Shown here piece by piece: positions 9,624-53,800 of a stretch of 64,000 bases of DNA (its first letter is position 1; the number at the start of each line of letters is the position of its first letter). The notes beneath the pieces were generated by a model. That model had not been told where the DNA came from. It was given only the letters and a program-made list of their open reading frames with translations, and ran no database searches. The stretch covers positions 7,874,001 through 7,938,000 of the forward strand of contig CM097884.1 of assembly GCA_044892505.1 (NCBI GenBank), in the 5' to 3' direction. Made by a program: the position numbers and the translations under genes. The DNA comes from Schmidtea nova (Eukaryota).

Positions 9624-10844
9624 TCAGACCAGTATTGTTCTATTGGCAGTAATTTGAACTTCATTTTCAAAAACTCCATAAATAACTACATGAACCGGTT
9701 CATCAATAGGTTTGGCAAACTTTATATCGAGTCGTAAATTTCCGTTTTGAGGGATTTGGCTTTGATTCAAATCAAAATCGGGAGCCAGAACAAATGTAAA
9801 GAATGGATAACTAGATTTAAATTCATCTAGACCAATACCACAATTCAAGTTTTTATCCAAATAACCTAGATTTCGGACAAGACTTTGCATATATGATGCA
9901 CTAAAATTATCATTTTCAAAATCCTGGGTATATGTTTCACGATAATCGGTATTTTTCGACAATGTTAATGAAGTCACATTAAAATGTTTGAATGTAGATG
10001 TGGACTCGGTATAAGACCCATTATATTGATTTTCGGATTGAAAAGCCACAAGAATGAAATTAGGCATTCGTCTATCCCCAAATATCTGCTCCTTGTAAAA
10101 TGACGATGCCCCTTTACCGATTGCAAACGATACGATTTCTTTGGATTTTAATGGATAAATTGCATGTTTTTTATTTAAACCAATTTGATGACCGGCCAAT
10201 ACTGAAGAATCACATCGAACTCTTCTTACCATTAATTTTGCATCAACTATTTGGATAACTGGTTTTCCAGCTACCGATTTCAATGATAATGCAGAATCAG
10301 ATCTCTTCAATCTAATATGTACATTAACTCCGGGAAGTAAGTATTTAGGTTGATCCATAAAATCCAGTTGTAATGACGAACACATGTTGAAAAGTTTAGA
10401 TCCTTTAATCCATTTTTTCCGATCGTCAGCTGAACCATATCCCATTGGAGTAAGACATGTTTCTTTAGCATCATTCGTATAATTTAAAATAGTTTCGATT
10501 ATTGCCTTGTGTGCATATGTATTGTTTCCACCCTCGATTTTTATATTATTAAATCCGAGAATTACATCTTTGAAAAGTGTATGAAACAAATAATTATTGG
10601 GAACTACATCACTCGCATCGGCTAGAGCTTTTTTATCTTTATCTACAACTTTGATTGTAACGGACAATAATGTATCGTTCAAATCCAAATATTCGGTTTG
10701 AGAACCATTAATGTAAAATTCTACATCATTTCTACTATCTGTAATTGAATTCATTGGAAAAACATCTTCAAACACCCCATATTCAATAACTGCTTGAGGT
10801 GATGGTCGATCAAAAAGACATAATTCAGATTTACCGCAAATCAT
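9624..10844 (-). CDS. Major capsid protein (double jelly-roll, Polinton PY/hexon-like), 406 aa
   Basis: SELCLFDRP, VEFYING..EYLDLNDTLL, LDFMDQPKYLLPGVNVHIRLKRS, FNVTSLTL, GNLRLDIKFAKP..V.VVIYGVFEN motifs typical of Polinton MCP. Confidence 0.92.
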   Translation of the reverse strand: MICGKSELCLFDRPSPQAVIEYGVFEDVFPMNSITDSRNDVEFYINGSQTEYLDLNDTLLSVTIKVVDKDKKALADASDVVPNNYLFHTLFKDVILGFNNIKIEGGNNTYAHKAIIETILNYTNDAKETCLTPMGYGSADDRKKWIKGSKLFNMCSSLQLDFMDQPKYLLPGVNVHIRLKRSDSALSLKSVAGKPVIQIVDAKLMVRRVRCDSSVLAGHQIGLNKKHAIYPLKSKEIVSFAIGKGASSFYKEQIFGDRRMPNFILVAFQSENQYNGSYTESTSTFKHFNVTSLTLSKNTDYRETYTQDFENDNFSASYMQSLVRNLGYLDKNLNCGIGLDEFKSSYPFFTFVLAPDFDLNQSQIPQNGNLRLDIKFAKPIDEPVHVVIYGVFENEVQITANRTILV

Positions 10845-11224
10845 TCTTCAAATATAGTTCCATGACCTTTCATTCGTTTGTTTATACGCTTTCGTTTACG
10901 TCTTGGTCCTACCGGTACAGATTCCGGTTCCTTATTTTTTGTAAACATACTTGTAATTGTAGGAAGCATTTGAGTTACAGCAGGTATAGCTTTATTAACT
11001 GCGGCCAAAGCATTGGTTTTCAATGACGGTAATATTTTATTATCTTTCATGATAACATCCTTGGCAGTATTCATTCCGAAATTACCTAGTCGTCTAAGAA
11101 TTGGAAGTGCAAATCTCCCAATAGTTTTCAACCAACCTGATCCATACTGTTTACCGACAAAATACGGTAATTCGCCACCAGTTTGGCTATCACTGTACAT
11201 TGAAACTATATCGGGATTACTCAT
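10841..11224 (-). CDS. Polinton PZ-like virion protein with amphipathic helix and basic C-terminus
   Basis: QTGG.LPYFVGKQYGSGWLKTIGRFALPILRRLG; located between mCP and MCP. Confidence 0.7.
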   Translation of the reverse strand: MSNPDIVSMYSDSQTGGELPYFVGKQYGSGWLKTIGRFALPILRRLGNFGMNTAKDVIMKDNKILPSLKTNALAAVNKAIPAVTQMLPTITSMFTKNKEPESVPVGPRRKRKRINKRMKGHGTIFEE

Positions 11225-12260
11225 CGTTTTTTCGAAAATGTAGAGTTAAGTGAGTTTTTGAATCTTTTGGAAATTTTATAAATCTTCCACTGTCATCCCG
11301 GATATTTATTTCTATATTGTTTATACAAGATGTTGAAACAGGTAAATACAATGGATTTTCAACTTGTATTTGAACAATTTCATCTGGCTCGTATTTTTCA
11401 ATCCATATAGATTTTAGTAAAGGAACCAAGGAATCACCAACAATAATGGGTTCGATAATGTTTGTATACACGAATAATTGCTGATGAAGTTTAGATATTT
11501 TCGGTTGACGAACACCAGAAATGATATTTTTATCGGTAAATGTATCCTTATCTAATCCCAATGTATTGACCAAGTATTTATCAAATCTGACTTTATTGAT
11601 TTTTTCTTTGAGTTTGAATTTGAACAATTTATTTAATTCGACAACTGTAAAAATATCCGAACAATTATCGCTAATATATTTCTGTAATTCATCTAGATGC
11701 GTTATATACAACTCCTCCTTGAAGGTGAATACATGTCCTTCTTGACGATCATACGATATTTTAAAAGTAATTATTTCTTCATCGTTACTGGCCAAGTTTT
11801 GCATAACTTTGAATTCACATTCTTCTTCATTACATTTTATTGTCAGTTTATTACTTCCCATTCGTTTTGCTACATCAAGATCGTTAAATGTAATTGTATA
11901 CGGAACAACATTACACGTGAGAATTATTCTTCCACTTCGTTGCCACATTTCGATATCCGGATCAATTGTGTGAGTTGGAACATTCAGAAGGCCACTATTA
12001 TTATATATCGAGAAAAATGCATTTGCAACAGTTGTTTTCGTAATATAGTAATATATTTTACAATAACTATAATATGGAAAAGGATGGTAAACAAATGTAA
12101 AATCCATTAGAGCAACTTCCCAATTTCCGTTTAAATAAATTGGATTAGGTAAATTCACCATGAATTTACTTGCGGTATTATCCGGATGGATATTCGGACA
12201 ACTATTGCTCGGTAAAATAGTGTAAAAATTCACTTTACTAGATTTTTTGACGAGATCCAT
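11217..12260 (-). CDS. Minor capsid protein (Polinton PX/penton-like), 347 aa
   Basis: FYTILPSNS...PDNTASKFMVNLPNPIYLNGNWEVAL at the N-terminus; LFVYTNIIEPIIVGDSLVPLLK...YLPV...INNIEINIRDDSG...THLTLHFRK at the C-terminus. Confidence 0.92.
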   Translation of the reverse strand: MDLVKKSSKVNFYTILPSNSCPNIHPDNTASKFMVNLPNPIYLNGNWEVALMDFTFVYHPFPYYSYCKIYYYITKTTVANAFFSIYNNSGLLNVPTHTIDPDIEMWQRSGRIILTCNVVPYTITFNDLDVAKRMGSNKLTIKCNEEECEFKVMQNLASNDEEIITFKISYDRQEGHVFTFKEELYITHLDELQKYISDNCSDIFTVVELNKLFKFKLKEKINKVRFDKYLVNTLGLDKDTFTDKNIISGVRQPKISKLHQQLFVYTNIIEPIIVGDSLVPLLKSIWIEKYEPDEIVQIQVENPLYLPVSTSCINNIEINIRDDSGRFIKFPKDSKTHLTLHFRKNDE

Positions 12261-13274
12261 GATGGTTCTTTATATCCATGCCATTTGACATAGTATTGTT
12301 TATCCTTACCAACCATTTTAGTCTTCAAAATCTTTTGAATTCTAAATATCGTAGGTGGAGGAATAACTTGTAATTCTTGTTCGTAGAATTTGCCGCTGAT
12401 TATATTGTTATCAGAGTCACGAATAGTATACATGACAGGATTCTGCACTGTGTTGACTTTCGATATTTGATATACCTCATCACTCCAATTATTATCAAAA
12501 TTTTTAACGAATGGCGATGTACTAATCTTGCTAATTCGAACATGATCATCAACTTTATATTTTGGTTTCTTTACTTTCACTTCACTCACAATATTTTCAG
12601 TATCAACTACTTCTGCCGGTTTCCTACCATTTATACCCCGATGAGCACTATGATTATAACTATGAATCAATTGAGGTAAGACATTAATCCAGGTTTTATT
12701 GCCTTTAAAAACAAAGTATTTTTTCAATCGATCACGCAAAGTTCGATTAAATCTCTCGACATGAGCGGCTTTGAATTGTGAGAATACCGAATAATGATTT
12801 ATTCCCTTGATAACTTCCTTGACTTTACTGTTGTAAAATTCCTTTCCTAAAAAATATTAAATTTATAAATTTAAATTAAAATTTACCCAAATCAGTTTGT
12901 AAATTAGTTGGCCGATCCTTTTTCATCATTGTCTTGATAGCAATTGCCATGTCATTAGCAGATTTAGATTTGACTCCAATTGCTCGAGCAAATCTACTGT
13001 AAACATCAATACATGTTAAAATATACTTGTACCCCTTGTTAATTTTGGAATACGGAATCATTTCCATCAAATCCATTTGCCACAAATCATTGATTCTATA
13101 TGTTTTATATGCTCGAGTTGGAAACCGTTTCAACATCGGTTTGTTTAGACTGTATGCAAGTTGCCCCGATAACCAACTTTGTGTCTGTTGTTTCGACTTC
13201 TGTGCCTTTTTCCTTAGCTTTTCGACTCCACCGAAACCGGCGTCGTCTTTTGGGTTCGTCCAGATCTTCTCCAT
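12230..13274 (-). CDS. Retroviral-like DDE integrase with C-terminal chromodomain-like region, 334 aa after splicing
   Basis: Two track ORFs joined by a 40-nt GT-AG intron (12847-12886): WQMDL...IDVYSR...LQTDLG|KEFYN...AHVERFNRTLR...YYVKWHGY. Confidence 0.95.
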
Positions 13275-13326
13275 TACAACAAGAAGATTTAAAGTTTAAA
13301 TTTAAATTAGGTAATGATTGACCCAT
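13105..13326 (-). CDS. Putative small overprinted protein (MG start, CC, basic cluster) overlapping the integrase 5' end
   Basis: ATG lies 4 nt after the stop of 13330-13839; MGQSLPN...SSCCNG...KRRRRFRWSRKAK; alternative frame over integrase for 170 nt. Confidence 0.4.
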   Translation of the reverse strand: MGQSLPNLNLNFKSSCCNGEDLDEPKRRRRFRWSRKAKEKGTEVETTDTKLVIGATCIQSKQTDVETVSNSSI

Positions 13327-13329
13327 TGT

Positions 13330-13839
13330 TTATGATTTTCTTTTTCCCAATAAACCAGCACCTCCCAATAAAGATAATGCTAATGGTAACAATGCTGCGA
13401 TAAAACCACCTTGTTGTTTATATATTACTTTGCGCATAAGTTTTTTATTTTTTGAGTTTACTAGCGACAACAATGGTTTTTTATGCTTGTTCAAAACACG
13501 GCGATTAGATGGAGTTAGATTCATTTTACCTCGCACGACTTTAATTAAAATAGAGAGTAAATCATCGATGACGTAACTAGGAAACGATTGAAGAATACCC
13601 ATTCTTCTAACGGAAGGGGCTTTAAGTAATGCATTAAAAAACGGTAAACTCCGATGATGTGTTTGTTTAGCATTAGATTTCAAATTATTTTTGGGAATAT
13701 TATCCATAAGTATTTTCTTGGATTTCTTTCTTGATTTCTTTATAGATTTCTTTGTAAATAGTTTCTTTGTTTTCTTTCCCGCTTTCTTTGTTCTAGCCTT
13801 TATCAATGGCTCAAACTTTACTCGAGATTTCATTAACAT
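13330..13839 (-). CDS. Basic virion core-like protein with C-terminal QQGGFIAALLP motif
   Basis: Lys-rich N-terminus; the GGF-hydrophobic tail resembles small Polinton structural ORFs; sits between ATPase and INT. Confidence 0.65.
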   Translation of the reverse strand: MLMKSRVKFEPLIKARTKKAGKKTKKLFTKKSIKKSRKKSKKILMDNIPKNNLKSNAKQTHHRSLPFFNALLKAPSVRRMGILQSFPSYVIDDLLSILIKVVRGKMNLTPSNRRVLNKHKKPLLSLVNSKNKKLMRKVIYKQQGGFIAALLPLALSLLGGAGLLGKRKS

Positions 13840-13859
13840 GATTACGATTGCAAACAGAA

Positions 13860-14483
13860 TTAACTTTGTTTATAAACCATGGCTCCTTCAGGGTTAAAAA
13901 TATCAGTTCTAACGCGTAAATCATCACTGCATTGTTGAGTAAAATCAAGGAAAATATATCCATGAGGAGATTTTGTAGCATCTTGAAAGGCTTCAATCAA
14001 AAAGTTACGATTAGAAGGATAAGCTTGTCTTGCCAGAAAATCAATAACTGTTGCATCTCTAGGATTTTTAAAAACAACAAGATATTGAACATTTAAATTA
14101 CGAGTTCGATGACTACCGCCCTGATGAAATAAATTCTGAGTTATAAAAATAACAGTAACACCTTTATGTCTACTGATTTTCGTAAATAAGTTATTGAAAT
14201 CCTTTTCTTTATTTGCTTCTTGATACAAGTCGTCAATGATAATCACATCACCATGTTTTAATCTAGATGACCAGTTTTTATCGAAACCTTTAATGATTGT
14301 CATTTTTATTTTACAAAACTGATCTTGTGTCATTCCACTTTCGTCGTCAGCACCCCTATGCCAATAAATATTATTAAATTTTGACTTGAATAATTTCGAT
14401 TGCAATAATTTACAAACAAATAAAGTTTTTCCACTCCCGCTCGGACCAACAATTTGAAACACTGCATCATTTCTTAATTCCAT
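13860..14483 (-). CDS. DNA-packaging ATPase (FtsK-HerA/A32-like)
   Basis: Walker A GPSGSGKT, Walker B VIIIDD, SRH and FITQN motifs. Confidence 0.94.
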   Translation of the reverse strand: MELRNDAVFQIVGPSGSGKTLFVCKLLQSKLFKSKFNNIYWHRGADDESGMTQDQFCKIKMTIIKGFDKNWSSRLKHGDVIIIDDLYQEANKEKDFNNLFTKISRHKGVTVIFITQNLFHQGGSHRTRNLNVQYLVVFKNPRDATVIDFLARQAYPSNRNFLIEAFQDATKSPHGYIFLDFTQQCSDDLRVRTDIFNPEGAMVYKQS

Positions 14484-14576
14484 ATTTAAAAATTATATTT
14501 TCTTAATATTATTGTTTATATTTGTTTTAAATACCTGTTCTCAAAGTAATTATTTCATTTAAAAATATTTTCAGTA

Positions 14577-15044
14577 ATGATTAGAAACATTAATTACAAG
14601 GGTAAGACAGATGTATCACACATGAAATTTCCAAATGGAAAACCCCAGCAAATTGTTGATCGAAGTGGAAAATACCCAATAATATACTTTAAATCAGGAA
14701 GATATAGAATAATGGGATGCAGGGAATTTATTAGTGACGAACAAGTTGATTTTTACGATTTAAAGATACAATCGATAACTGTAACTGCGGATTTAGGATT
14801 TATTTGTAATTTGAATGAATTATCGAAATTAATACCGTGTGTTTACGAGCCAGAATTATTTCCAGCTTTGAGATATATCAAATATAATCCCATGTGTGTA
14901 AATATATTTGCAAGCGGAAAATTAGTCATATTAGGATTAAAAAACAAAGACTATAGTACTATAGTTGATGATATTATTTACGATATAAAATCAATTATAG
15001 AAGATAAAGCCTTTGTTGATTTCATACTAACATGTGACTCATGA
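14577..15044 (+). CDS. Divergent TATA-binding protein (TBP)-like protein encoded by the Polinton
   Basis: KIQSITVTADLGF...YEPELFPALRY...VNIFASGKLVILGLK matches TBP repeat 2 (KIQNIV.SCD..F...YEPELFPGLIY...LLIFVSGKVVLTGAK); a shortened repeat 1 ends IIYFKSGRYRIMGCR. Confidence 0.85.
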   Translation: MIRNINYKGKTDVSHMKFPNGKPQQIVDRSGKYPIIYFKSGRYRIMGCREFISDEQVDFYDLKIQSITVTADLGFICNLNELSKLIPCVYEPELFPALRYIKYNPMCVNIFASGKLVILGLKNKDYSTIVDDIIYDIKSIIEDKAFVDFILTCDS

Positions 15045-15219
15045 CTGCAATATCGATGCATTAGAAATGCACGATTCTGATTGGCTCTGTGTGTATCGAT
15101 AGAATAAAGACATGTTGTGCATGCTTCATTCTGATTGGTTCATTGTGTGTGTTTGAAATCATGTGTGTTTCTTTGATATATATACTATGAACAATCTCAC
15201 ATAGTTTATATTCACAATT

Positions 15220-15873
15220 ATGTCGATGACCCAAACACTAATTAAAAGCCGTAAGGATTTTAATTATTTATTTTTCATATTTTATATTATTATTATTTTA
15301 GATAAATTAATGAACGTTATCTATCGAAAGCTGGAGGAGCTATTCCCGAACCTGATGCCGGCTCTCGTCTACACGGCTCCGGAGATGTTCCCGTACAAGA
15401 TAATGGTCTTGACGGGAATAGATATAAACCAGATTGTGCTCGATCACATGACGAGCCAGAATACAGATCTCCCAATGGTACCCGAGCACATTATGTGCGC
15501 TTATCAATGCGGGAGCTGCGTGGAAAGAATCCGGCAGTTTAATATCTGGGTTTTGAGGAATTCCCTCAAACTCTATGATGTTCAACAAATGGACAAAATC
15601 GATGAAGAAAAGGAGGAGGAGGAACAAGTCAAGGAAACCTGGCCCAACTCTACTCCGGAGCCGACAGATGATGAAACAACAACAACAGATTTGGAAGCAC
15701 CAACTCTAGATGGTCCGTTTCCAACTGAATCATCTCAATCACCAGATTGTCAGGAATCACCTCAATCACCTGATTGTATGCAATGCCATCGAAAGGCTGA
15801 AGATTGTGATGGTGATAATAATAATAGTGATGATGGTTGCCAATCTCTTGGTGGCGAACCATCTGACATGTGA
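15220..15873 (+). CDS. Accessory protein with H-x2-C-x3-C-x2-C motif and acidic Ser-Pro tail; one in-frame intron
   Basis: Intron 15251-15301 (GTAAGG...TTTTAG, 51 nt) removes a hydrophobic AT-rich stretch; HIMCAYQCGSC; EEEKEEEE and SPDC repeats. Confidence 0.65.
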   Translation: MSMTQTLIKSRKDFNYLFFIFYIIIILDKLMNVIYRKLEELFPNLMPALVYTAPEMFPYKIMVLTGIDINQIVLDHMTSQNTDLPMVPEHIMCAYQCGSCVERIRQFNIWVLRNSLKLYDVQQMDKIDEEKEEEEQVKETWPNSTPEPTDDETTTTDLEAPTLDGPFPTESSQSPDCQESPQSPDCMQCHRKAEDCDGDNNNSDDGCQSLGGEPSDM

Positions 15874-16393
15874 ATGTTGTTGTTGTTGTTGTTGTAATTT
15901 GTTGTGTAATTTTTGTTATATTATTTGAATAAAAGTTTTATTATTCATTTTAGTTTTTCTTTTTATTTTCATTTTAGTTAAATAAAAGTTTTTTATTCAT
16001 TTTATTTAAATAGTAATAGATTTTTATTAAAACATTTTAAGTAGTAGTTTTTTTTTTATTAACTGTATATAAAAGTTAAAAAATTTTTTTTTTTTTTTTT
16101 TTTTATTAAATATTTTTTCAGAAAGAAAGTAGTAGTATTATAAAATAAATAAATAAATAAGAACATTAGTAACCAGACATTAGAAGCAGAACCTATTCTG
16201 TGATGGTTTTGATATGCAAAAGCTCATTATTGAACATATACAAATTAATTAAACATGCACGCATACAACAAAGACATTGCAATACATGTGAATAGTGTGT
16301 GCAAGATAAATGCATGAATATGATTGGACAAAGACATCCAGTCATTAGTATAAATACAAAGACATTTTATAAAATATTGTCACAATTTATAAA

Positions 16394-16810
16394 ATGAATT
16401 CAAGAAAACAAAATTTAGATATAAGCGAAGAAAAAATATATCAGACTGAGGTAAAACCAGTTCAGATGTACTATGACAGCCGACTTTATTTTTTGGTTAA
16501 TGAAATACCGTATCGATTATCATTTCCGGTAAAGTTAACAAAATCTTTATATGACAGTCTTGCTGTAATTATTGCCAAGGAAGATATTATCGCATTAAAT
16601 CGATTATTTTCAAAGATGAATGTTAATTTGACATGTAAAGAAACCATGTACATCAATAACAGAAAAACTCGGTTTCATGATGCGTTTCAAACTATTGATT
16701 TCATGGATCAAGAACATTGGTTCGTTACCGTTATTATTCAAGGGTACAAGATTGATAAAAAAGATGTTGTTACTCCAATTTGGAGAGTTGACAATGCAAG
16801 ATATGCATAA
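16394..16810 (+). CDS. Accessory protein, possibly an OB-fold ssDNA-binding protein
   Basis: Clean 138-aa ORF with TATA-like and CCAAT elements upstream; C-terminal FVTVIIQGYKI...PIWRVDN recalls viral SSB strands (by eye only). Confidence 0.45.
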   Translation: MNSRKQNLDISEEKIYQTEVKPVQMYYDSRLYFLVNEIPYRLSFPVKLTKSLYDSLAVIIAKEDIIALNRLFSKMNVNLTCKETMYINNRKTRFHDAFQTIDFMDQEHWFVTVIIQGYKIDKKDVVTPIWRVDNARYA

Positions 16811-16852
16811 TTGTTTTTTAATAAATATTTTTTAGTATGAACAATTTTAGTT

Positions 16853-17458
16853 TTGATATTAGTTTTTGTTTTTAAAATGAAATTAATTATAGTTATTTTA
16901 TTATTATGTGTTCACAATACTGAAGGAGAACAAGCTTTGGAAGATTGTCAATCATCCCATCCGTTTCGAAAACAAGATAGTACTTGTGCGAGTTATAATG
17001 ATATATGTCTTTACTCAAACATTGAATGCAGTCAAATAAAATTACAATGTAATCAATGTCCTTCCAAAAATAATGTGATTAATAATGACATTGAAAAGAT
17101 GATTGCCAAAATAATGATGAAAATAGTTGAACGATTAAAATGTATCAATCAAACTTTTGTTAAAAAAGAATATGAAGTCAGATACCAAAATCAAACAGTT
17201 GAAAATGAAAAAACAGCCATTGTATTACATTATATAAGTTTATTTATATTAATAATTATAATGATGTTATCGGCATCCATACGGCTGGAGAAGATTTCAA
17301 ATATTCCAAAGAATAATATTCCGACAAATACTAGTATTCCGATGAATAATATTACAATGAATAATATTCCTATGAATAATATTCCGAGTAATAATCCAGA
17401 TGTAAATAATTTTGAAACTAAATTTTGTACACGTACACAACGATATATTTATAAATAA
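16853..17458 (+). CDS. Predicted type I membrane protein: signal peptide, Cys-rich ectodomain, TM helix, Asn-rich tail
   Basis: MKLIIVILLLCVHNTEG signal-like; six or more Cys in residues ~33-70; TM AIVLHYISLFILIIIMMLSASI; NNIPMNNI repeats; 3' part lies in the TIR. Confidence 0.65.
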   Translation: MILVFVFKMKLIIVILLLCVHNTEGEQALEDCQSSHPFRKQDSTCASYNDICLYSNIECSQIKLQCNQCPSKNNVINNDIEKMIAKIMMKIVERLKCINQTFVKKEYEVRYQNQTVENEKTAIVLHYISLFILIIIMMLSASIRLEKISNIPKNNIPTNTSIPMNNITMNNIPMNNIPSNNPDVNNFETKFCTRTQRYIYK

Positions 17459-18283
17459 ATTTTATTTTCAATGTCTTTGTTCATGTTGCACGTGTATTGC
17501 ATTGTCTTTGTTTAAGTTGCACGCGTGTTGCAAACCTTTCGATGACTAATATTTCTGTTAAAATTATTTATGTTAAAAAAAAAATTTGTGTAAAAAAAAA
17601 AATTTACAATTATAAATTTGGCGGGAAAAAAAAATTTTAAAAAAAAAAAATTTTAAAAATTTAAAAAATTTTTGGCGCGAAAAAATAATTTTTGAAAAAA
17701 AAAAAAAAAAAAATAGTCCCCCCCCCCGGGGGGGGGGTCGGAAAAGTTCTTTGTTTAAAAATTTTTACGCCCACGCATTAAAAAGTTCTTTGTTTAAAAA
17801 TTTTACGCCCACGCATAAAAAAGTTCTTTGTTTAAAAAAAAAATTTGAAAAAAAAAAAAAAAAATTTGTAAGAAAAAAAAAATTTGTGTAAAAAAAAAAA
17901 TTGTGTTAAAAAATTTTGTGTTAAAAAATTTTGTGTTGAAAAAATTTGTGTTAAAAAATTTTGTGTTGAAAAAATTTGTGTTGAAAAAATTTGTGTTTAA
18001 AAATTTTGTGTTAAAAAAAAAATTTGTGTTAAAAAATTTTGTGTTAAAAAAAAAATTTGTGTTAAAAAATTTTGTGTTAAAAAATTTTGAAATTTAAATT
18101 TGGCGCGAAAAAAAAAATTTTCAAAAAAAAAAAATTCAAAAATTTTTGGCGCGAAAAAAAAAAAAAAAAAAAAATTTGACCCCCCCCGGGGGGGGTTCGG
18201 AAAAAAAAAGTTCTTTGTTTAAAATTTTCCGCCCACGCATTATGACTCATTTCTTTGTGTTTGACTCCACACATCTACCTACT
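17114..18283 (-). repeat. Right terminal inverted repeat of the Polinton
   Basis: Mirror of 192-1380; contains CnGn tracts, the TGTGTTAAAAAATTT tandem array, CGCCCACGC and TTTGGCGCGAAA motifs. Confidence 0.95.
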
Positions 18284-19346
18284 ATTGCTTCTTGATTTCA
18301 CTAACAAATTGCAATTTCTAAATGAATGACCTTCTTTACCGCATATTAAGCATTTGTCCTTCAAAGGACACTCAAATCGCATATGGTCACTTTGTCCACA
18401 ACAAAAGCATTGACCAGATCTTAACCTTTCTTCTGCTGGCTCAGGTAGACCACAACATCTATTATAAACTTTCCTTGCGATATGCTTCATTGAAACTAAC
18501 GGTGGTGGTCTACGATCCATAGTTGTCCTCTCATTATATTGTTCTACCACGGGTTTCACTCTATCAATTTGTCTTTCGCTTCTTTCATTTCTATTTTGAT
18601 AACTTATTTCTGGTTGACGAATCGAATACATTCTATTATTTAAAGATGTTTTTTAGTCCATTGCTTCTGTTTATCTTGAGCAACGTTTGCACAGGTTTAT
18701 TTCACTACTGCCTGAACTTCTTCAAATCGTTCTTTTGCATCGTAGCCTTCTCGTGCCTCATATACTTTTGCTAAATTTCTAATTTCTTCCCTCACGATAT
18801 TAGCCTCGTTGAAATATTTTCTTTCAAACGGTCGTTCCGAACTCTGCTGCACAAAATCATTTCAACAATATTTTCTTTTGAAATTCCACAGTCAAAGACT
18901 TCGTCAACAAGTTTCTTTACTCGTATCTCGAATGTAATAAATCTTTCATCGTTATTTTGTTTCACTGCTGATAAGTCACAAATCTTATCCATAACGGACT
19001 TCTTTTTGGTAAATGTTTCATTAAACCATTCACGAGCTTTTTCATTCGTTGTGTCGATGTCCTTAAATTCTTTCCAGAGAATATATGCTTCTTCAGACAA
19101 TAATAAATCAAAAATACTTACTAAATTTAGATCATTTAGTAGCATCCAATCTTCAATATCCTTGAGCAATTTTTCTGCTTCTACCATGCTTCGGCCGTCG
19201 AATCTTCTGACATTAAAATTCAAAATGTCTTTTGCCTGTTTAGGCATAGATTCCATAATCATCTTTCTATACTGATTTATTGTCACCGCGTGAATCGGCT
19301 CGATTTTTTCGGCGTGGTCGCCAGTTACAATCTCTTCATAATTCAT
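18284..19346 (-). pseudogene. Ty3/gypsy-like gag (capsid region plus two CCHC zinc knuckles), disrupted
   Basis: RRFDG...KQNNDERFITFEIRVKKLV capsid-like ORF; frameshift/stop near 18790; CFCCGQSDHMRFEC and CLICGKEGHSFRNC knuckles. Confidence 0.85.
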
Positions 19347-19435: not shown

Positions 19436-22109
19436 CAGGGATCCCCAAAGTGCGGCCCCCGGGCCGCATGCGGCCCTCGAGCAATTCAAATGCGGCCCCT
19501 GGCCGAATTTTATAAATTTGAATAATTAAATTACATGGCTTTGTTTTTAATAGGGCCATTTTGTAACATTTTTTAACGAACTAAGTCTTGTTGAATTACT
19601 TATCTTCAATTTAACAATCCCATTATATTTATTTAATATTCATTTTAACAGCATTTGCCAATATAGATTTTTTATAATTCATTTGCGTTTTACAGAAATG
19701 CAAAATATCTTTCCCACTCAAAGTTAACGATGCTTTGCGCCACGGTTACCTTCCTCAGTGATTTTGGCTCTTCTGAAATTGTGTTAGTGATTACACTTCC
19801 TTACGTTCGTAGTTACGTTAATATAACGCCATATACTTAATTTAATTTTTTTTTTCAATAAATGGATGGAGCAAAAAAACGTCGCATTGCAGACGAAAGA
19901 AGGCAGTTTAAAGCAAGTTGGACAAATGACTATTTTGTTATTGAGAACAGTGAAAAGATAATTTGTTTAATATGCCAACAAATAATTTCGGTGATGAAAG
20001 AATACAATGTCAAAAGACACTATGAGACCAATCATGAGGATTACGTTGCTTATGTTGGAGAGCAGAGAAAGCAAAAGGTGACTAAATTACAAACTGGGCT
20101 TTCAGCCCAGCAGTCAATCTTTAAAAATGTTATTAAAATCAATGAAGCAAGTATTGAGGCAAGCTACATTGTTGCTCATGAAATTGCAAAAAGATGTAAA
20201 CCGTTCAATGATGGGGAATTTATAAAGGATTGCCTTATGAAAGTGGTAGATAAAGTTAGTCCAGATAAAAGAAATGCATTCAAAGGAGTCAGTCTGTCCA
20301 GTCAAACCATAACACGCAGAGTTGAAGACATTGGCAAAGATCTTGAAAATCAACTTCAACTAAAGGCTCAAAAGTTTGTTGCGTTTTCATTGGCAATAGA
20401 CGAAAGTACAGATATTGGAGACACTGCTCAGCTATTAATTTTCATTCGTGGCATAACTGACAATTTTGAAGTTATTGAAGAAGTCTTAAAATTGTGTAGT
20501 CTAAAAGGAAGAACGAGGGGAACGGATATATTCGGAGCAATGTGCACAGCAATCGAGGAAATGAAATGTCAATGGTCAGCACTCACTGGAATAACTACAG
20601 ATGGTGCACCGTCAATGGTCAGCAAAAAAATTGGTCTTGTTGGTTTGATTAAAAAAAAAGCTGCTGAAGAAGGGCGAGATATTCTTCATTACCACTGCAT
20701 AATACATCAAGAAGCACTTGTAACGAATTTCTTAAAGATGGAACATGTTATGACTGTCATTGTAAAAACTGTAGATTTTATTAAATCACGGGGACTGAAT
20801 CATCGCAAGTTTAAAACGTTTCTGGAAGAATCTGAAACGGATTTTGGTGATTTGATTTATTTTACAGCTGTTCGATGGTTAAGCCGAGGTGCAACATTGA
20901 AACGTTTTTTTAATCTCAGAAACAAAATTTCCGAGTTTTTGGATAATAAAAACGAGAATAAAAAGGAATTGAATGAAAATGGACAAAATTGTTTAGTTCT
21001 GCTGCAAAATGTGAGTTGGTTTACAGATTTAGCATTTTTAGTAGACATCACTTCACTGTTGAACGAACTTAATTTGAAGTTGCAAGGCTGTGGAAAGTTT
21101 ATTACTACTTTAGTGGACAGTGTGAAATCGTTTGTAAGAAAGCTAACCCTACTGCAAAAACAACTGAAGGACGGAAATTTATCTCATTTCGTGGCTTGCA
21201 CGGAGATTTCAAACCAAAACAGACAAGCTCTTGAACTTTTGCGTTCTGACAAATATTTCGAGATTATTAGCAGTTTACTATCTGAATTTGCCCGACGTTT
21301 CTCTGACTTCAGATTACATGAAACGTCATTTGCTATTTTCCAGAATACATTTGCTTGTGAGCCAGATATTGCACCAACTGATTTGCAATTAGAACTGATT
21401 GACTTGAAGGAAAATTCAGAGGCGCGAACTTCATTTCATGCTTTAAGCTTGATGGAATTTTATCGAAGCCTTCCGTTTTCGGCCTATCCGTCTATTCGAC
21501 AACATGCTCAGCGTATCGGGTCACTTTTCGGAGCCACCTACATCTGTGAAAGAACATTTTCTACAATGAATATCACCAAATCCAAGATGAGGTCACGATT
21601 GACTGATAATCATCTTAGCGCAATCCTGCGCATTGCAACAACAAGCTTCGAACCTCGCTTTGGTAATATAATTTCTCAAAAATCTCAACTTCACAAATCA
21701 CATGACGTTCCCCAGAAGAAGTAAATTTGATTTTGACAACTCCAAGCTAAATCCTAACAACATTTACTTTTAATTTCACTACAAACGATTTGCAAGTAAC
21801 GACATTTTATGTTGAATAAATAAATAAATTATTTTATGTGTTATTACGCAATTTTATACATTTATAGTTTTAAAAATTTAATTTCAAGCACTTCATTAAT
21901 GCTTAATTGATTTCATATAATTTTATTATATATCAAATATGTAAGCCTTAATTTCTATGCCTAGGCCCTAGGCTAGGGCATTTAGGGCTTGCATTTATAA
22001 GCTAAACTTGGACTTGGCGATTTTGGCGCTTGCATGATACCCTATGGCCCGCAAGACTTTATCGTGCCACTAAAGCGGCCCTCGGTATCCAATACTTTGG
22101 GGACCCCTG
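19436..22109 (+). mobile_element. hAT DNA transposon, SPIN/Buster-like, autonomous-looking
   Basis: 16-bp TIRs CAGGGATCCCCAAAGT / ACTTTGGGGACCCCTG (1 mismatch); subterminal CGGCCC repeats; intact transposase ORF. TSD not cleanly matched. Confidence 0.9.
19862..21724 (+). CDS. hAT transposase (GTF2IRD2/SPIN-like), 620 aa, intact
   Basis: CLIC...KRHYETNH zinc finger; AIDESTD, TTDGAPSM, HCIIHQEAL, RWLSRG, TYICERTFS (DDE). Confidence 0.95.
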   Translation: MDGAKKRRIADERRQFKASWTNDYFVIENSEKIICLICQQIISVMKEYNVKRHYETNHEDYVAYVGEQRKQKVTKLQTGLSAQQSIFKNVIKINEASIEASYIVAHEIAKRCKPFNDGEFIKDCLMKVVDKVSPDKRNAFKGVSLSSQTITRRVEDIGKDLENQLQLKAQKFVAFSLAIDESTDIGDTAQLLIFIRGITDNFEVIEEVLKLCSLKGRTRGTDIFGAMCTAIEEMKCQWSALTGITTDGAPSMVSKKIGLVGLIKKKAAEEGRDILHYHCIIHQEALVTNFLKMEHVMTVIVKTVDFIKSRGLNHRKFKTFLEESETDFGDLIYFTAVRWLSRGATLKRFFNLRNKISEFLDNKNENKKELNENGQNCLVLLQNVSWFTDLAFLVDITSLLNELNLKLQGCGKFITTLVDSVKSFVRKLTLLQKQLKDGNLSHFVACTEISNQNRQALELLRSDKYFEIISSLLSEFARRFSDFRLHETSFAIFQNTFACEPDIAPTDLQLELIDLKENSEARTSFHALSLMEFYRSLPFSAYPSIRQHAQRIGSLFGATYICERTFSTMNITKSKMRSRLTDNHLSAILRIATTSFEPRFGNIISQKSQLHKSHDVPQKK

Positions 22110-24425: not shown

Positions 24426-24827
24426 ATGCATAGTGTAAAGGTGTTGATTCCCACTTATTACTCGAAACCTAGTCTTCAATATCAATTAATAAACAACAGT
24501 TATCATGAAATGCCATACATTGAGAACTCTTTCAATAACAAACGTTGGACTTCAAATTTAATCAAACAAGAACCAATTGGATCTCACAATGTTACCTATA
24601 TGATTATGTCAGGACTTGTTGCTTTGTTCATTAATTTTTTCTTTGGGATCATAGCCGTAGTATGTTCCATTTATTCATTTCAGTTGTTGAAACGATTTGA
24701 TTCCACAAATGCCAAGAAATGGGGACGGGTAGCTTTCATATTAAATATACTCGGGATTTTAACTACGATGTTTCTCGTAATTTTGATTTTTCGACTGAAT
24801 TTCAGTGACCGAAACGTTTCTCATTAA
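24426..24827 (+). CDS. CD225/dispanin-family (IFITM/PRRT-like) membrane protein, probable host gene
   Basis: TYMIMSGLVALFINFFFGIIAVVCS...DSTNAKKWGRVAFILNILGIL matches the two-hydrophobic-segment CD225 pattern. Confidence 0.75.
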   Translation: MHSVKVLIPTYYSKPSLQYQLINNSYHEMPYIENSFNNKRWTSNLIKQEPIGSHNVTYMIMSGLVALFINFFFGIIAVVCSIYSFQLLKRFDSTNAKKWGRVAFILNILGILTTMFLVILIFRLNFSDRNVSH

Positions 24828-47801: not shown

Positions 47802-50800
47802 TTTTCTTCTTCTATCGTTCGCTGATCGTCTTCTTTCTTTTTCTTGATTGCGTCGTTTATCTTTTGCTGCCTAGTTTTCTGTTTCAACCATTGATCGAAT
47901 TTTTCAGCTCTAAATTTGTTTTATTCAAATCTATTAATTTTGATATTCACTTGTTTATTTCTTTATTATCTTCAGTTGTTTCATCTTCAGTTGAAGGAGG
48001 AGCAGAACCACGCCTATGCCAGTTACGTTTTGGAGCATTTAATGCTGAACCTAAGAATTCTCCAGGAGGCAAAAGTTTCTGGAAAAATTTCCAATTATAT
48101 ATTGAAATCATTTTTATTACTTCACAGTAAAACTGAGAGGCTGGTCCAGTTTTCCATTTGGGTAAAGAAGAGTCAAACATCTGAAAAGCCATCATTGGCG
48201 GGTTGAGAAATTTAGTTTCCGTATTTTTAGCACGTTGCTGCCAACGAAACATAAACAAATGTCTTTCACAGCTTTTGTGTCCATATTTATTGGCTAGTGT
48301 CATTGGCGTTAACCCGCCGCAGTCTTTTAAGTCAATGTTTGCACCTGTAAAGCCAACTTAATGTGTGCAAATTTTGTTTTATCACAATCACCTTTTAGCA
48401 GTAGCAAATCTATTATTTCGCTTTTATCTTTCGCCGCGGCTAGGTGAAGAGCTGTTCGCCCAAGCTTCGTTGAGTAATTAACTTTTGCTCCTTTACATAA
48501 AACAATTAATTTAATAATTACTTATGTCGTAGTAATGAGAGATAGGTTCTTTTTAAACTGGATAAAATCAGCTAATTTCAATAACATTACAGTTAATACA
48601 ATCTAAACTCATAATTACTTTTTCAAATAAAATTTATTTTTTTAGTTTATTCATAAATTCAATCTGCCTAATTTCAGATTTTTATTTTTATTCTTAACCC
48701 CGTGTGCAATAAACACGAGTCTGACTCGTGTCAACTTAAATTTGATTTGTGAAACAATCACGTGTCTGCTCGTATAATTTTTATGTTTAATTTTATTTTT
48801 TTCACTGTAGTATTTAATAAATAAAATTCTTTATTTTTCTGTTATGAAATTTCTTTGAAATAATCATTTCAGGCACATAAGTTATTAAAATAAGAAAAAC
48901 TACAATTTGTTAAAATATTTTATCTTCATCATCTTTACGAATCCGTGTATTTTTATTCTTTCAGACTTTATATCAAAATTTTTTCTACTTACCACAAATT
49001 TTGAAAATAGCAGTGACGAAAATTTGTATTAAACTGAAAACATTTTGATCTATAGTCTAAAAACTGAAAAAATGAAATCTTTCATACTTATTTATTTTTA
49101 TAAAACAAAAACTGATGAATTTTATTCATTAAAACATAGACAGCCATGTTCGATTGCTTCTTTGCCAATCTTTACCAGCAGCTTGTTTCATTTCATGGCG
49201 CTAAAAATCTCTTTCTTAAAGCCATTAGACTTTTGATATGCAATTTTAATATGTTTGATATTCTCGGATGGAACTATTTTCTAGCTGTTTGTGAATATTG
49301 GCAAAATTGTAAGCTCAAAAACTTGTTTGGTTCAACGTAGGATGTCTAAATCGACATTGAACAAATATTGGGGGCACTTTAGTCATGACAGTTGAAAATG
49401 TTAAGATCATAAAGAAGAGAATAATCTTAACACTATTTCTGACTCCAAATTATAAATGTAAAATAAATATAAATGTGATCATATGTATCTTAAATTAATA
49501 AAGTCGGTTGATCGTGTTTGATCAACTACTTTTCTAATACTTTTATTAAATGATAATTTTACAAATGTATTAAGTGTAAATAATTTAAGAAGAATTGTAC
49601 AAGATCTGAATTAGATTGATCCCTGGTGATTTCTGCTCACAAGAGGCCTATGACTTCTTTGTAACTCCCTCCTCAATAATACACAGAAGGGGAAGTAAGT
49701 AGGGGGAAGTGATGACACGACACCAGTGAGAAGTATGGATAATATTTTTTTTGATATTTTCCCATATATAAATTGTTTAGATTATATTTTGAATATATAA
49801 TTTTTAGAAATTATATTTTTTTATTTTTTGATGAATATTTGTTGCGATTATTTTTTGGTGAATATTTTTTGGCAAATATATTTTGGTGATATTTTTTGGT
49901 GATTATTTTTTTGACCAATTTGTTATACCACTCATTGACTGCTGAATTACCCCATACCCCCAATGCCACTCAACCACCAACCAATCTATTTACTATATTA
50001 CAATACCGTCCCCAAACCACCATTATATATATTATATATATATGTTGGGTATTTGTGATGTTTAGTCGGTGCTGTTAGTCTGACTCCTCGGTGTTCTTTA
50101 AATTTGATTCAATAAAATAACTCAACACAGAAGAATTTATTTGTAACAATCACACTTTTTGACACACTAAGTCTCTTTAAAATTTCACAATAACTTTTAT
50201 CACTGCTTCTCCGACTTCGCGTAGGGATAAGTCTCCCCAAGGAAGATCTCCCTTTCTGGTACGCTGGAATAATAAATTTGGTTTGGAACTTTTCAAATAT
50301 CGCTCTTAACTCCTCACTTGCTGAATTCACTTACTTTTGCTTCGACCATTCTGGCAAACTTTAGTATTTGTCGTTCTCTTTTATACTGCTTCTGATGATT
50401 GGTTTCCCACTTCGCTACAGCTGTCAAATGGTAGTTTCCGATTTGACGTTTTAATTTTCCATCTGTCGGTTACTCTCCGGGTTTCCTCCAAAGTTATTTT
50501 TCTCAGGAATTATTACCTGTCACATTGCTTGTCCGGGTTTCCCACACTCTTCGGGTTCTCCATTGTCTCGGGTTTCCCATTAGTTCGGGCTTTCCATTAG
50601 CCAATTAATTCTTAATTAATATTTTAATTTGTTAATTCTTTTCTTCTGGGAACCCCCATTAATTTTATATGCCAATATCTGAATTCGTCTCATCATTTGG
50701 CATCCTCCCATACCAATTTCCCCCTCTAAATCTTCATTTTTGAATTTTATAAATTTTTAATTAACGTTTGCATTTTATAAATAAGAGAACACCATTTTTT

Positions 50801-53800
50801 TAAATATATTGCAATATATTTCAACAGCTTAGCTGTCATCATCAAACTTTCCACAATCTCAATAAAATAAAAATTGATCTTAATTATACGCTTAATAGTG
50901 ATTACATAATTACATATGCATAATCCAATAAAACTTTTATTTACCCTAATAAAATTAATTAAATACTCTCAAAATGCATGTAGATATTGCATTTTGTATA
51001 TTTATTTTTTGATTAAATGATTTTATCATCAATGCCTCGCAATTCATATGTTCATAATAATTTTTAAAACCCTTAGAAAGTATTTTGAAATTAGAAATAT
51101 CAATGCTCTTCTTGCAAGTCTTATTATGCTGAATAATGTTACTTTTCCGCTCTTTCTGGTATGTTCTTGAACTCGTGTACAGAGATGACGGGCAGTCTCT
51201 CCAATGTATGTGGCATTACACCCATTACAAGTAAAACGATATACGAGATCAGAACACAGACCAAATGGCGTCACAGATTTATTACTGAACATATCCCGAA
51301 CTTTGCAAGACTTAGAAATTATTTTAACATTAGTATTTCCAATATATTTTATAATAGATTTTTTTAAAATTTACAAATCCCTCAGAAAACGGTAAAACTA
51401 TAACAGAACCAATGCAATCATTCAAGTTACTTTTATTTATTTCATTATTATTATTACAATCAACACCATCATTCATTCCCATAACAACATCACCTGTTTC
51501 AATCAAAGGAGCACTATCAGGGGTATTAAATGGATCAACACCAGGAGAAATTTTGTCATCAATCACATTCAACTTATTAATACACTTATCAACAGTTTCA
51601 CTCACCATTCGTTGCAAGAAACATTTTGAATATCCATTATTCTGTAGTAATTTAAGTAATTAATCAATACTATTTATAGATTTACAATAAGTTGACGGCA
51701 ATGTCCAAGAACCATAAACCAATCTCCTTATCATATTTCTTTTATATTTAAAATCACAAAAACTTTCTGGTGATGTATACAAACCAGTATCTGTTGTTTT
51801 CCTATAAATTTCGGTTTCAAAATATTTCTCTTTCTTTTCAATCAACAAATCAAGAAATGATATTTTAGAATTAATTTCTTCTTCAAAAGTAAATTTAATA
51901 TTTTTATGCAAATTATTCATATAATACAAAAAAGGCTCAATATGTTCTTTTTTCTTAAATACAAGAAAAATATCATCAACATAACGTTTATATACTAAGG
52001 GTTTATTCACACTACAATTTATAAATTTATTTTCTAAACTTGACATAAAAATAGATACCAGTGTAGGAGCTAAAGGTGAGCCAATGGCAACACCATTAAT
52101 TTGCTTATACCATTGATTATCAAAGATAAAATGGACATTAGAAGTAGCAAATGTCAAAAGTTTACGAAAAGCAACAACTTCAATAATATTATGAAGTGAA
52201 GTGTTAACACTCCATAAATTGCAGCAAATATCAATCGTTTCTATTAAAGGAACATTTGTAAAAAGGCTAACCACATCAAATGAAACCATAAAGTCATCAT
52301 TCCCACTCTTATTTAAATTTACTATAAAAGAGGCAAACTCAAAGCTATCTTTACATTCATATTCAGTCTTAATCAAGGGTTTCAACAAACTATCTAAAAA
52401 TTTCGCAACCTTATATTGTGAAGTTTGAATCATTGACAATACAGGTCTCATAGGTAAATTATCTAAATATCTTTTGCCGTCAACTTATTGTAAATCTATA
52501 AATAGTATTGATAAATTACTTAAATTACTACAGAATAATGGATATTCAAAATGTTTCTTGCAACGAATGGTGAGTGAAACTGTTGATAAGTGTATTAATA
52601 AGTTGAATGTGATTGATGACAAAATTTCTCTTGGTGTTGATCCATTTAATACCCCTGATAGTGCTCCTTTGATTGAAACAGGTGATGTTGTTATGGGAAT
52701 GAATGATGGTGTTGATTGTAATAATAATAATGAAATAAATAAAAGTAACTTGAATGATTGCATTGGTTCTGTTATAGTTTTACCGTTTTCTGAGGGATTT
52801 GTAAATTTAAAAAAAATCTATTATAAAATATATTGGAAATACTAATGTTAAAATAATTTCTAAGTCTTGCAAAGTTCGGGATATGTTCAGTAATAAATCT
52901 GTGACGCCATTTGGTCTGTGTTCTGATCTCGTATATCGTTTTACTTGTAATGGGTGTAATGCCACATACATTGGAGAGACTGCCCGTCATCTCTGTACAC
53001 GAGTTAAAGAACATGCCAGAAAGAGCGGAAAGAGTAACATTATTGAGCATAATAAGACTTGCAAGAAGAGCATTGATATTTCTAATTTCAAAATACTTTC
53101 TAGGGGTTTTAAAAATTATTATGAACGTGTGAATTGCGAGGCATTGATGATAAAATCATTTAATCCAAAAATAAATATACAAAATGCAATATCTACATGC
53201 ATTTTGAGAGTATTTAATTAATTTTATTAGGGTAAATAAAAGTTTTATTGGATTATGCACATGTAATTATGTAATTACTATTAAGCGTATAATTAAGATC
53301 AATTTTTATTTTATCGAGATTGTGGAAAGCCTGATGATGACAGCTAAGCTGTTGAAATATATTGCAATATATTTAAAAAAAATGGTGTTCTCTTATTTAT
53401 ATGAATAAATTGCCATTTTTATTTAATACTTTGTTTGCATTTTAATTAATTATTTTGCCAAATTTCGTATTTTATCGATTTGCACATAGTTGTTGTGCTT
53501 TTTAATTTTAATTTTTTGTCTTTTTAACAACCCCAACATATATATGAAATCTGTGAAATTGGTTAATGAATGAGCGGAAATAGGAGTATGTGGACAATAC
53601 AGCAGTACGAATGAGAAGTACAGTTAATCTGTCAAAAAATAATCGAAAAAACATATTTACCAAAAAATAAATAATTTCTAAAAATTATATATGTTACAGT
53701 TAAAGCATAAATTGCAGTGAGCGTATACACTAACTAGTTGATGCATGCTTTCACTTGTTGTTTTAGTGAAAGTATTCATTATTTCAAATGATACATACTG

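Follow-up and report, generated by a model that had tools for sequence, protein, structure and literature searches.

A TATA-binding-protein-like gene in a Polinton lineage of Schmidtea nova and a candidate target box before its late genes

The window, a stretch of 64,000 nucleotides from Schmidtea nova (contig CM097884.1, positions 7,874,001 to 7,938,000), contains a complete 18.1-kb Polinton with AGTAG...CTACT ends (192..18283), which is inserted in gag-like sequence and flanked by the 6-bp target duplication ATTGCT (186-191 and 18284-18289). Its terminal inverted repeats (TIRs) are ~1.2 kb long, the left one at 192..1380 on the forward strand, where an N follows at 1381, and the right one at 17114..18283 on the reverse strand; the Polinton hallmarks of TIRs with AG...CT ends and a 6-bp duplication are thus both present. 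Repeated TTAAACAAAG units, GGCGCG(A) motifs and C8-G8 palindromes occur within the TIRs, and ~15 copies of a 50-51 nt repeat lie upstream of the polymerase gene (6887-7669). Downstream of the element are a hAT/SPIN-type transposase ORF (19862-21724), a CD225 (IFITM-like) host gene (24426-24827) and a 2.6-kb inverted-repeat structure (50795-53381). In four runs of unrecorded kind, all of them made up of contigs, the stretch is evenly covered, without a usable splice or start signal.

The element carries the core set of protein-primed DNA polymerase B (pPolB), rve integrase, A32 ATPase and C5 protease, all on the reverse strand. The polymerase (1320 aa; 2841..6803) is 57-65% identical to loci that match PF03175, the A32-like packaging ATPase (13860..14483) matches PF04665, and the integrase (PF00665; 12230..13274) is broken across reading frames in the window copy. 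The adenovirus-type (C5) protease (PF00770; 9176..9421) is probably a second exon, as the gene looks spliced, with a very short first exon, GTAAG, a pyrimidine tract, CAG and a conserved frame (~9500-9555, reverse strand). The putative major (406 aa; 9624..10844) and minor (347 aa; 11217..12260) capsid proteins on the same strand were assigned by position and size and have no Pfam match, and both ORFs are conserved in sister elements. A 73-aa Met-Gly ORF (13105-13326, reverse strand), also conserved in sister elements, overlaps the integrase start and possibly encodes a myristoylated virion protein.

On the forward strand, a 138-aa protein (16394..16810) has the predicted fold of a T7 gp2.5-like single-strand DNA-binding protein (SSB), with a middling resemblance to the T7 gp2.5 and ASFV CP312R SSBs (Z 7.4-6.7) and BFVD matches in giant viruses (to E 1e-6); the ESM Atlas gave nothing usable for this gene. 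The idea that this neighbour is a partner transcription factor was dropped because of its gp2.5-type fold. Several SSB-like genes in metagenome loci, like the protease gene, resemble second exons. A Pfam scan of 14 ORFs of the Polinton returned no match to TFIIB or RNA polymerase, so that the two element-encoded components of an orthogonal system of the Nucleocytoviricota type were not found there. In the host genome (labelled G000), 25 candidates yielded 6 matches to PF00382, compared with thousands of element copies, a search that a very divergent TFIIB could escape.

Head-to-head with the ATPase gene lies an open reading frame of 155 aa (14577..15044, forward strand), which ORF analysis, Pfam, phmmer, an AF2 model, Foldseek and alignment identify as a gene for a TATA-binding protein (TBP)-like protein. 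Residues 62-133 match the Pfam TBP family (PF00352, E 1e-13) and the first 60 residues have no Pfam match, while each of the 35 phmmer matches to the PDB is a chain of TBP or of a TBP fusion (lowest E 1e-17). The AF2 model, built from 41 homologues (mean pLDDT 92), has strands at residues 2-10, 25-28, 35-38 and 42-48, no helix before residue 79, a complete TBP repeat 2 afterwards and nothing beyond the saddle, with no extra domain. Searched with this model, Foldseek placed TBP structures at all of ranks 1-44, and in a wide structure search yeast TBP 66-240 was aligned over 142 of the 155 residues (Z 12.1, rmsd 2.7), compared with Z 6.1 for the highest-scoring chain that is not a TBP. Similarly, 29 of 30 ESM Atlas matches belong to TBP-family clusters, whose archaeal or bacterial labels rest on few members and were left out of account.

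These searches confirm the fold that the preliminary description had proposed from the letters alone. Its clear second repeat is complete in the model, with the stirrup motif YEPELFP at residues 90-96 and IFASGKLVILGLK at residues 110-122, and its shortened first repeat, without a segment like YNPKRF, appears as a gap in the alignment. Alignment and model agree that repeat 1 has no H1, S2, stirrup or H2, so that the two full repeats of canonical TBP, each with five strands and two helices, are not found in this protein. The asymmetry of the saddle that had been proposed holds for these helices, S2 and the stirrup; it does not extend to the DNA-binding sheet of repeat 1, most of which is retained in the model, where both sheet halves of the saddle are present, as judged from the 142 residues aligned to yeast TBP.

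E91 and E93 are invariant in 41 of 41 family members, and two C-terminal stirrup glutamates are described as TFIIB contacts of TBP in the available text of PMC7221094, so that at sequence level this canonical pair is present. The basic N-lobe patch on H2, given in the same text as a common site for TFIIA, TAF1, Brf1/2 and Mot1/BTAF1 (PMC7221094), is missing with the deleted H2 of repeat 1. Three of the four canonical intercalating phenylalanines are kept (F38, F95 and F111, each invariant in the 41 members), and the fourth position is K, P, S or R in the alignment of the same members. F18, found in 39 of 41, lies close to the lost phenylalanine position. At base-facing positions, N6, R44, M46, S66, R99, C107 and N109 are each present in all 41 members where canonical TBP has V, V, T, N, I, V and L, and L119 is present in 39. 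In yeast numbering, which we take from the alignment, these replacements presumably correspond to V71 (N6), V122 (R44), T124 (M46), N159 (S66), I194 (R99), V203 (C107), L205 (N109) and T215 (L119). R99, C107 and N109 fall on the three positions, I194, V203 and L205, of the altered-specificity mutant TBPm3, which accepts TGTA according to the part of PMC1636458 available to us.

The gene is abundant in the host genome. A 24-nt pattern over the stirrup has 5,278 matches in G000 and its reversed control has none. Among 40 copies sampled from the first 41 listed matches, a sample biased to copies with an intact stirrup, the ATPase lies within 1.2 kb of the TBP-like gene in every case, and 31 pass an open-frame test; of the nine that fail, two have an open frame but not the required start motif. 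The dN/dS values between four subfamily representatives are 0.12, 0.15, 0.20, 0.20, 0.22 and 0.46. In 24 of 24 pairs of the window with a copy and in 6 of 6 subfamily pairs, dN is smaller than dS; by these ratios the gene is under purifying selection. More distant families in the host genome carry versions at 79% and 51% identity.

Relatives also extend beyond this genome. With the TBP-like protein, 58 cluster representatives were matched at E 1e-30 or better, and 42 of 58 database matches outside G000 are close homologues. Homologues at 29-63% identity (best segment) occur in 60 metagenome loci, of which 38 hold at least one element gene and 25 a core Polinton gene; for the 20 loci that reach 3 kb or more, these numbers are 18 and 15, and 20 of the 22 loci without a recognised neighbour are shorter than 3 kb. 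The suggestion that homologues might always sit beside a Polinton ATPase did not hold, as in many metagenome loci the gene follows protease-side genes. Scans of viral contigs with the TBP alignment, with capsid and ATPase proteins and with a capsid alignment confirmed no relative, and a phage collection gave no match. Two sister-element contigs carry genes for a ubiquitin-conjugating enzyme and a dual-specificity phosphatase (L029:225-719 and L028:4008-4316). Two other Polinton contigs (L200, L201) had been binned into bacterial MAGs, probably through contamination.

The phylogeny with host TBPs that had been recommended placed the family apart from them. In a FastTree analysis of 177 of 221 rows, near-copies having been removed, the divergent proteins form a 165-row clade (SH 99) separate from cellular TBPs. 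A nested group of 110 rows holds the helix-less forms, and longer forms that by alignment keep the repeat-1 helices branch outside it; one of these (L068) adjoins a Polinton ATPase and integrase. A 46-row IQ-TREE analysis, in which the bootstrap had not fully settled, recovers a 26-row Polinton TBP clade at 100/100 with four host paralogues outside. Two proteins guessed to be intermediate (P0112, P0123) fell among the helix-less rows of this tree, so that this group needs two changes. Both trees were built without a named Nucleocytoviricota TBP. As judged from these trees, the TBP-like gene belongs to a wide, Polinton-borne clade apart from host TBPs. The host has at least four TBP-family genes (L081-L085), one apparently in two copies, and two divergent ones group together at 100/99.

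A short, directional box precedes the late genes of the element, late being used here as a label for packaging and virion genes and not for a measured time. The form TATAAACAA occurs six times in the Polinton, on the reverse strand every time. It lies 37 nt before the ATPase start (14512..14520, in 39 of 40 sampled copies), within the 3' end of the ATPase gene before a 169-aa gene (13866..13874), before the 73-aa ORF (13414..13422), within the putative minor capsid gene before a 127-aa gene (11317..11325), within the latter gene 42 nt before the putative major capsid gene (10878..10886) and at the protease stop before a 133-aa gene (9172..9180). Two variants on the same strand are CATAAACAA, ~60 nt before the integrase ORF (13326..13334), and GATAAACAA, which precedes the putative minor capsid gene from within the 3' end of the integrase gene (12296..12304). 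In the 5.9-kb late block the core form TATAAACA occurs six times in sense and never in antisense orientation, compared with a shuffle mean of 0.46, and none of 500 shuffles reached six. One ATAAACAA lies 165 nt before a 134-aa gene, which also has CCAAT and TATA.

Upstream sequences from this window, from the metagenome loci and from eight further stretches of G000 were compared for ATAAAC no more than 120 nt from the gene start. It was found in 92 of 98 distinct late windows vs 9 of 68 other windows, although the elements are related and the windows are not independent. By gene, it precedes the ATPase in 19/19 windows, the major capsid gene in 13/13, the 73-aa ORF in 7/7 and the protease in 4/7, and the TBP-like gene itself in only 6 of 52. 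Conversely, a TATA-type match occurs in 23 of 68 non-late vs 5 of 98 late windows and CCAAT in 25 of 68 vs 17 of 98. A profile of 88 sites reads T(71%)-ATAAAC-A(88%)-A(69%), ATAAACA is found 89 times in sense and once in antisense orientation in 97 late windows, and the ATPase start follows it within a narrow range of distances (28-47 nt). A Polinton contig that was picked by its capsid gene (L200) has a TBP-like gene and the box before seven late genes, and no box before the TBP-like gene; L201 and L202 are too short to be scored for the gene.

Most boxes sit in the coding tail of the preceding gene. In the last 45 codons of late-block genes, Ile-Asn is written ATA-AAC in 27 of 39 cases vs 20 of 224 elsewhere (Fisher p 3e-15, which is too small a value because the Ile-Asn sites are related); by this codon count the box holds at synonymous sites. 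The preliminary description had supposed that the saddle may recognise a non-canonical TATA, and the conserved TATAAACA box before the late genes now offers a candidate for that target. Before many TBP-like genes without a TATA box, including that of the window (14520-14560) and those of L023, L028, L033, L048, L064 and L066, there is a TTTGTTT(T)A motif, in several copies ~35-40 nt before a TCAT, which may mark another class of promoter or be the box in reverse, used for self-control.

A second Polinton group in the same genome, defined by a PF21738 capsid and a PLA2-integrase, was used as a control without the TBP-like gene. Eight copies were examined, three of them bounded by TIRs within the stretches analysed, and unfiltered profile searches found no TBP-like match between the TIRs of these three; TBP matches in L181, L185 and L194 come from adjacent first-group elements, which each carry that group's ATPase. 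ATAAAC was present in 0 of 43 upstream windows from eight gene classes of the second group, and the box is thus no general need of Polintons in G000. As the control comes from one lineage, whose virion module is different, the co-occurrence of box and gene may reflect descent alone. Other families found through PF03175 in this genome were set aside as controls, as the type that was traced (L101) carries a TBP-like gene at 51% identity. The second group (L176/L177, L178/L179, L184/L185) has a PLA2 domain fused to the integrase and a zinc-finger ORF near the left end. Many of its starts read TAAA(A)TG, which we take to resemble a poxvirus late motif.

Taken together, we favour, as a reasonably probable reading of these sequence patterns, that the TBP-like gene encodes a late-gene promoter factor of this Polinton lineage, which would read TATAAACA and recruit host TFIIB and Pol II. 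The protein would be made from its box-free promoter, presumably by host machinery. Co-occurrence and the residue changes suggest that the target of its remodelled saddle is TATAAACA, a TATA variant whose position 7 is C. The retained glutamate stirrup would recruit host TFIIB and hence place Pol II ~35 nt upstream of the genes for packaging, integrase and virion proteins. Repeat 1 of canonically oriented TBP covers the downstream half of the box, and here the differing half of the box is the downstream half and the remodelled repeat is repeat 1. With the repeat-1 helices the surface for TFIIA, TAF1, Mot1/BTAF1 and Brf1 is lost, so that by the published interfaces the protein would work outside TFIID and escape eviction. 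Ordinary TBP would use such a box poorly, which hints at a switch for late genes built into the element. In the portions of these reports available to us, the yeast HIS3 box TATAAAG is active with A or T at this position and inactive with C (PMC4457894), and C or G there forces a Hoogsteen pair on TBP (PDB 1QN3; PMC8643651). Against the late-factor reading, such a pair does allow wild-type TBP to occupy a C(-25) box (PDB 1QN3; PMC8643651), the lost phenylalanine and the two lost helices may weaken binding, and the box is found in just four of seven protease windows and, as ATAAACAA, before the 134-aa gene that bears CCAAT and TATA. The fuller claim of a two-step transcription programme in a large animal Polinton lineage, with a lobe-deleted TBP, a saddle re-keyed to TATAAACA, which host TBP would use poorly, and borrowed host TFIIB, is one to which we would give about even chances.

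The same box could instead be read by a host factor, either a forkhead protein or a host TBP aided by an activator, the TBP-like protein doing other work and being merely co-inherited. The forkhead consensus is RYAAAYA, with ATAAACA as a forkhead core, and the ATAAACA within the box fits it; moreover, TBP-DNA structures with C at position 7 exist and the TBP-less control is a single lineage. However, ATAAACA is almost wholly confined to one orientation in the 97 late windows (89 vs 1), the usual forkhead site GTAAACA occurs there 0 times in sense orientation, a T precedes the core in 71% of 88 sites and the distance to the ATPase start is held to 28-47 nt. A site so fixed in orientation and distance looks more like part of a core promoter than like an enhancer, and we regard a host reader as unlikely, though with an appreciable chance. 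Somewhat less probable still is a decoy role, in which the protein would sequester host TFIIB or obstruct TATA boxes and so damp host or element transcription; an invariant TFIIB stirrup without the TFIIA/TAF1 side and the thousands of copies in the host genome would suit it, but a pure decoy needs no invariant new base-facing residues, and the lineage-wide box would be left unexplained.

A role at the element termini, in which the protein would bend or bind DNA for replication, packaging or integration together with the adjoining SSB, is recommended by the SSB-like gene, which adjoins the TBP-like gene in 18 of 60 metagenome loci, and by the TTAAACAAAG repeats of the TIRs, which have TAAACAA in common with the box. 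Yet TATAAACA itself is absent from the TIRs of this Polinton, the TFIIB-contact glutamates are invariant and other elements place the TBP-like gene away from the SSB, and only a slim chance is given to such a role. The preliminary description had also named a one-off, decaying fragment of a host TBP as the finding that would overturn its proposal. Failure of the intact-ORF test by 9 of 40 sampled copies is what a recently captured fragment would lead one to expect, but the 5,278 matches, purifying selection (dN below dS in all 24 and all six pairs), the homologues at 29-63% identity in 60 metagenome loci and the exclusion of four host paralogues from a 26-row clade at 100/100 tell against it, and the selection and tree results refute this idea almost beyond doubt.

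Read as a late-gene promoter factor, the protein can be set beside three known systems. It shares with cellular TBP the saddle fold, a complete repeat 2, the TFIIB-contact glutamates and three of the four phenylalanines, and differs from it in its length of 155 aa, a repeat 1 without H1, S2, stirrup and H2, invariant replacements at seven or more base-facing positions, ~25% identity and a separate clade. The herpesvirus TBP mimics (KSHV ORF24, EBV BcRF1, HCMV UL87) act at TATT late promoters with host Pol II, according to the available part of PMC6541308, and the proposed arrangement of a viral TBP-like factor, a modified TATA box and structural genes is alike. ORF24, as far as the sources seen describe it, acts as one of six proteins in a complex and contacts Pol II directly, whereas the Polinton protein is a bare saddle with no extra domain; unlike the herpesvirus mimics, it is recognisable as TBP by sequence and keeps the TFIIB stirrup, and its box is TATAAACA as opposed to TATTWAA. 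With the TBP-like proteins of Nucleocytoviricota it shares a viral TBP fold, and its best BFVD matches are found there (E 2e-7). For these viral TBPs, the available text of PMC7221094 proposes that loss of N-lobe regulatory residues evades Mot1/BTAF1 and reports diverged TFIIB-contact positions paired with viral TFIIBs. The Polinton protein, in contrast, keeps the glutamates and has its helices deleted outright.

The preliminary description could not say whether TBP had been reported among Polinton genes. In the accessible parts of Starrett et al. 2021 (PMC8502044), which treat adintoviruses and Polintons with the same element type and core genes, a bare 'TBP' label stands in the legend of Fig. 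5, as it does in the preprint, so that there is some precedent for a TBP-like gene in a genome related to Polintons. The term occurs once in the article text available, with no family, structure or promoter described, and the available supplement mentions neither TBP nor TATA. VLTF3 is the transcription factor reported in polintoviruses in the accessible text of PMC11131425; viral TBPs are known from large DNA viruses according to that of PMC7221094, in which 'polinton' occurs 0 times. In a literature search that lay outside figures, bioRxiv supplements and most subscription journals, no description of the family, the deleted lobe or the box was found. We describe a gene that is real, selected and lineage-wide in these Polintons, a variant of viral TBP with a strong candidate target.

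These observations touch on how Polintons control their virion genes, and on whether they follow an early-to-late programme like free viruses; according to the available text of PMC8097293, no particles of vertebrate Mavericks had been observed. For this control there would now be a named factor with a defined 8-bp target. If the two-step reading is true, the capsid and packaging genes of thousands of copies would stay off until a 155-aa protein is made, and the lineage would provide a natural orthogonal TBP-promoter pair with an origin apart from the herpesvirus TATT system. Furthermore, it would represent a natural experiment in which TBP has shed the lobe for TFIIA, TAF1 and Mot1, with helix-keeping forms persisting in related elements (L068). 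With more than 5,000 copies in the host, any leaky expression might act on host TFIIB, or on host genes that carry this box. The genome measures 1.25 Gb, of which 5,278 full-length 18-kb copies would fill up to ~7.6%, and its Polintons are often nested in one another.
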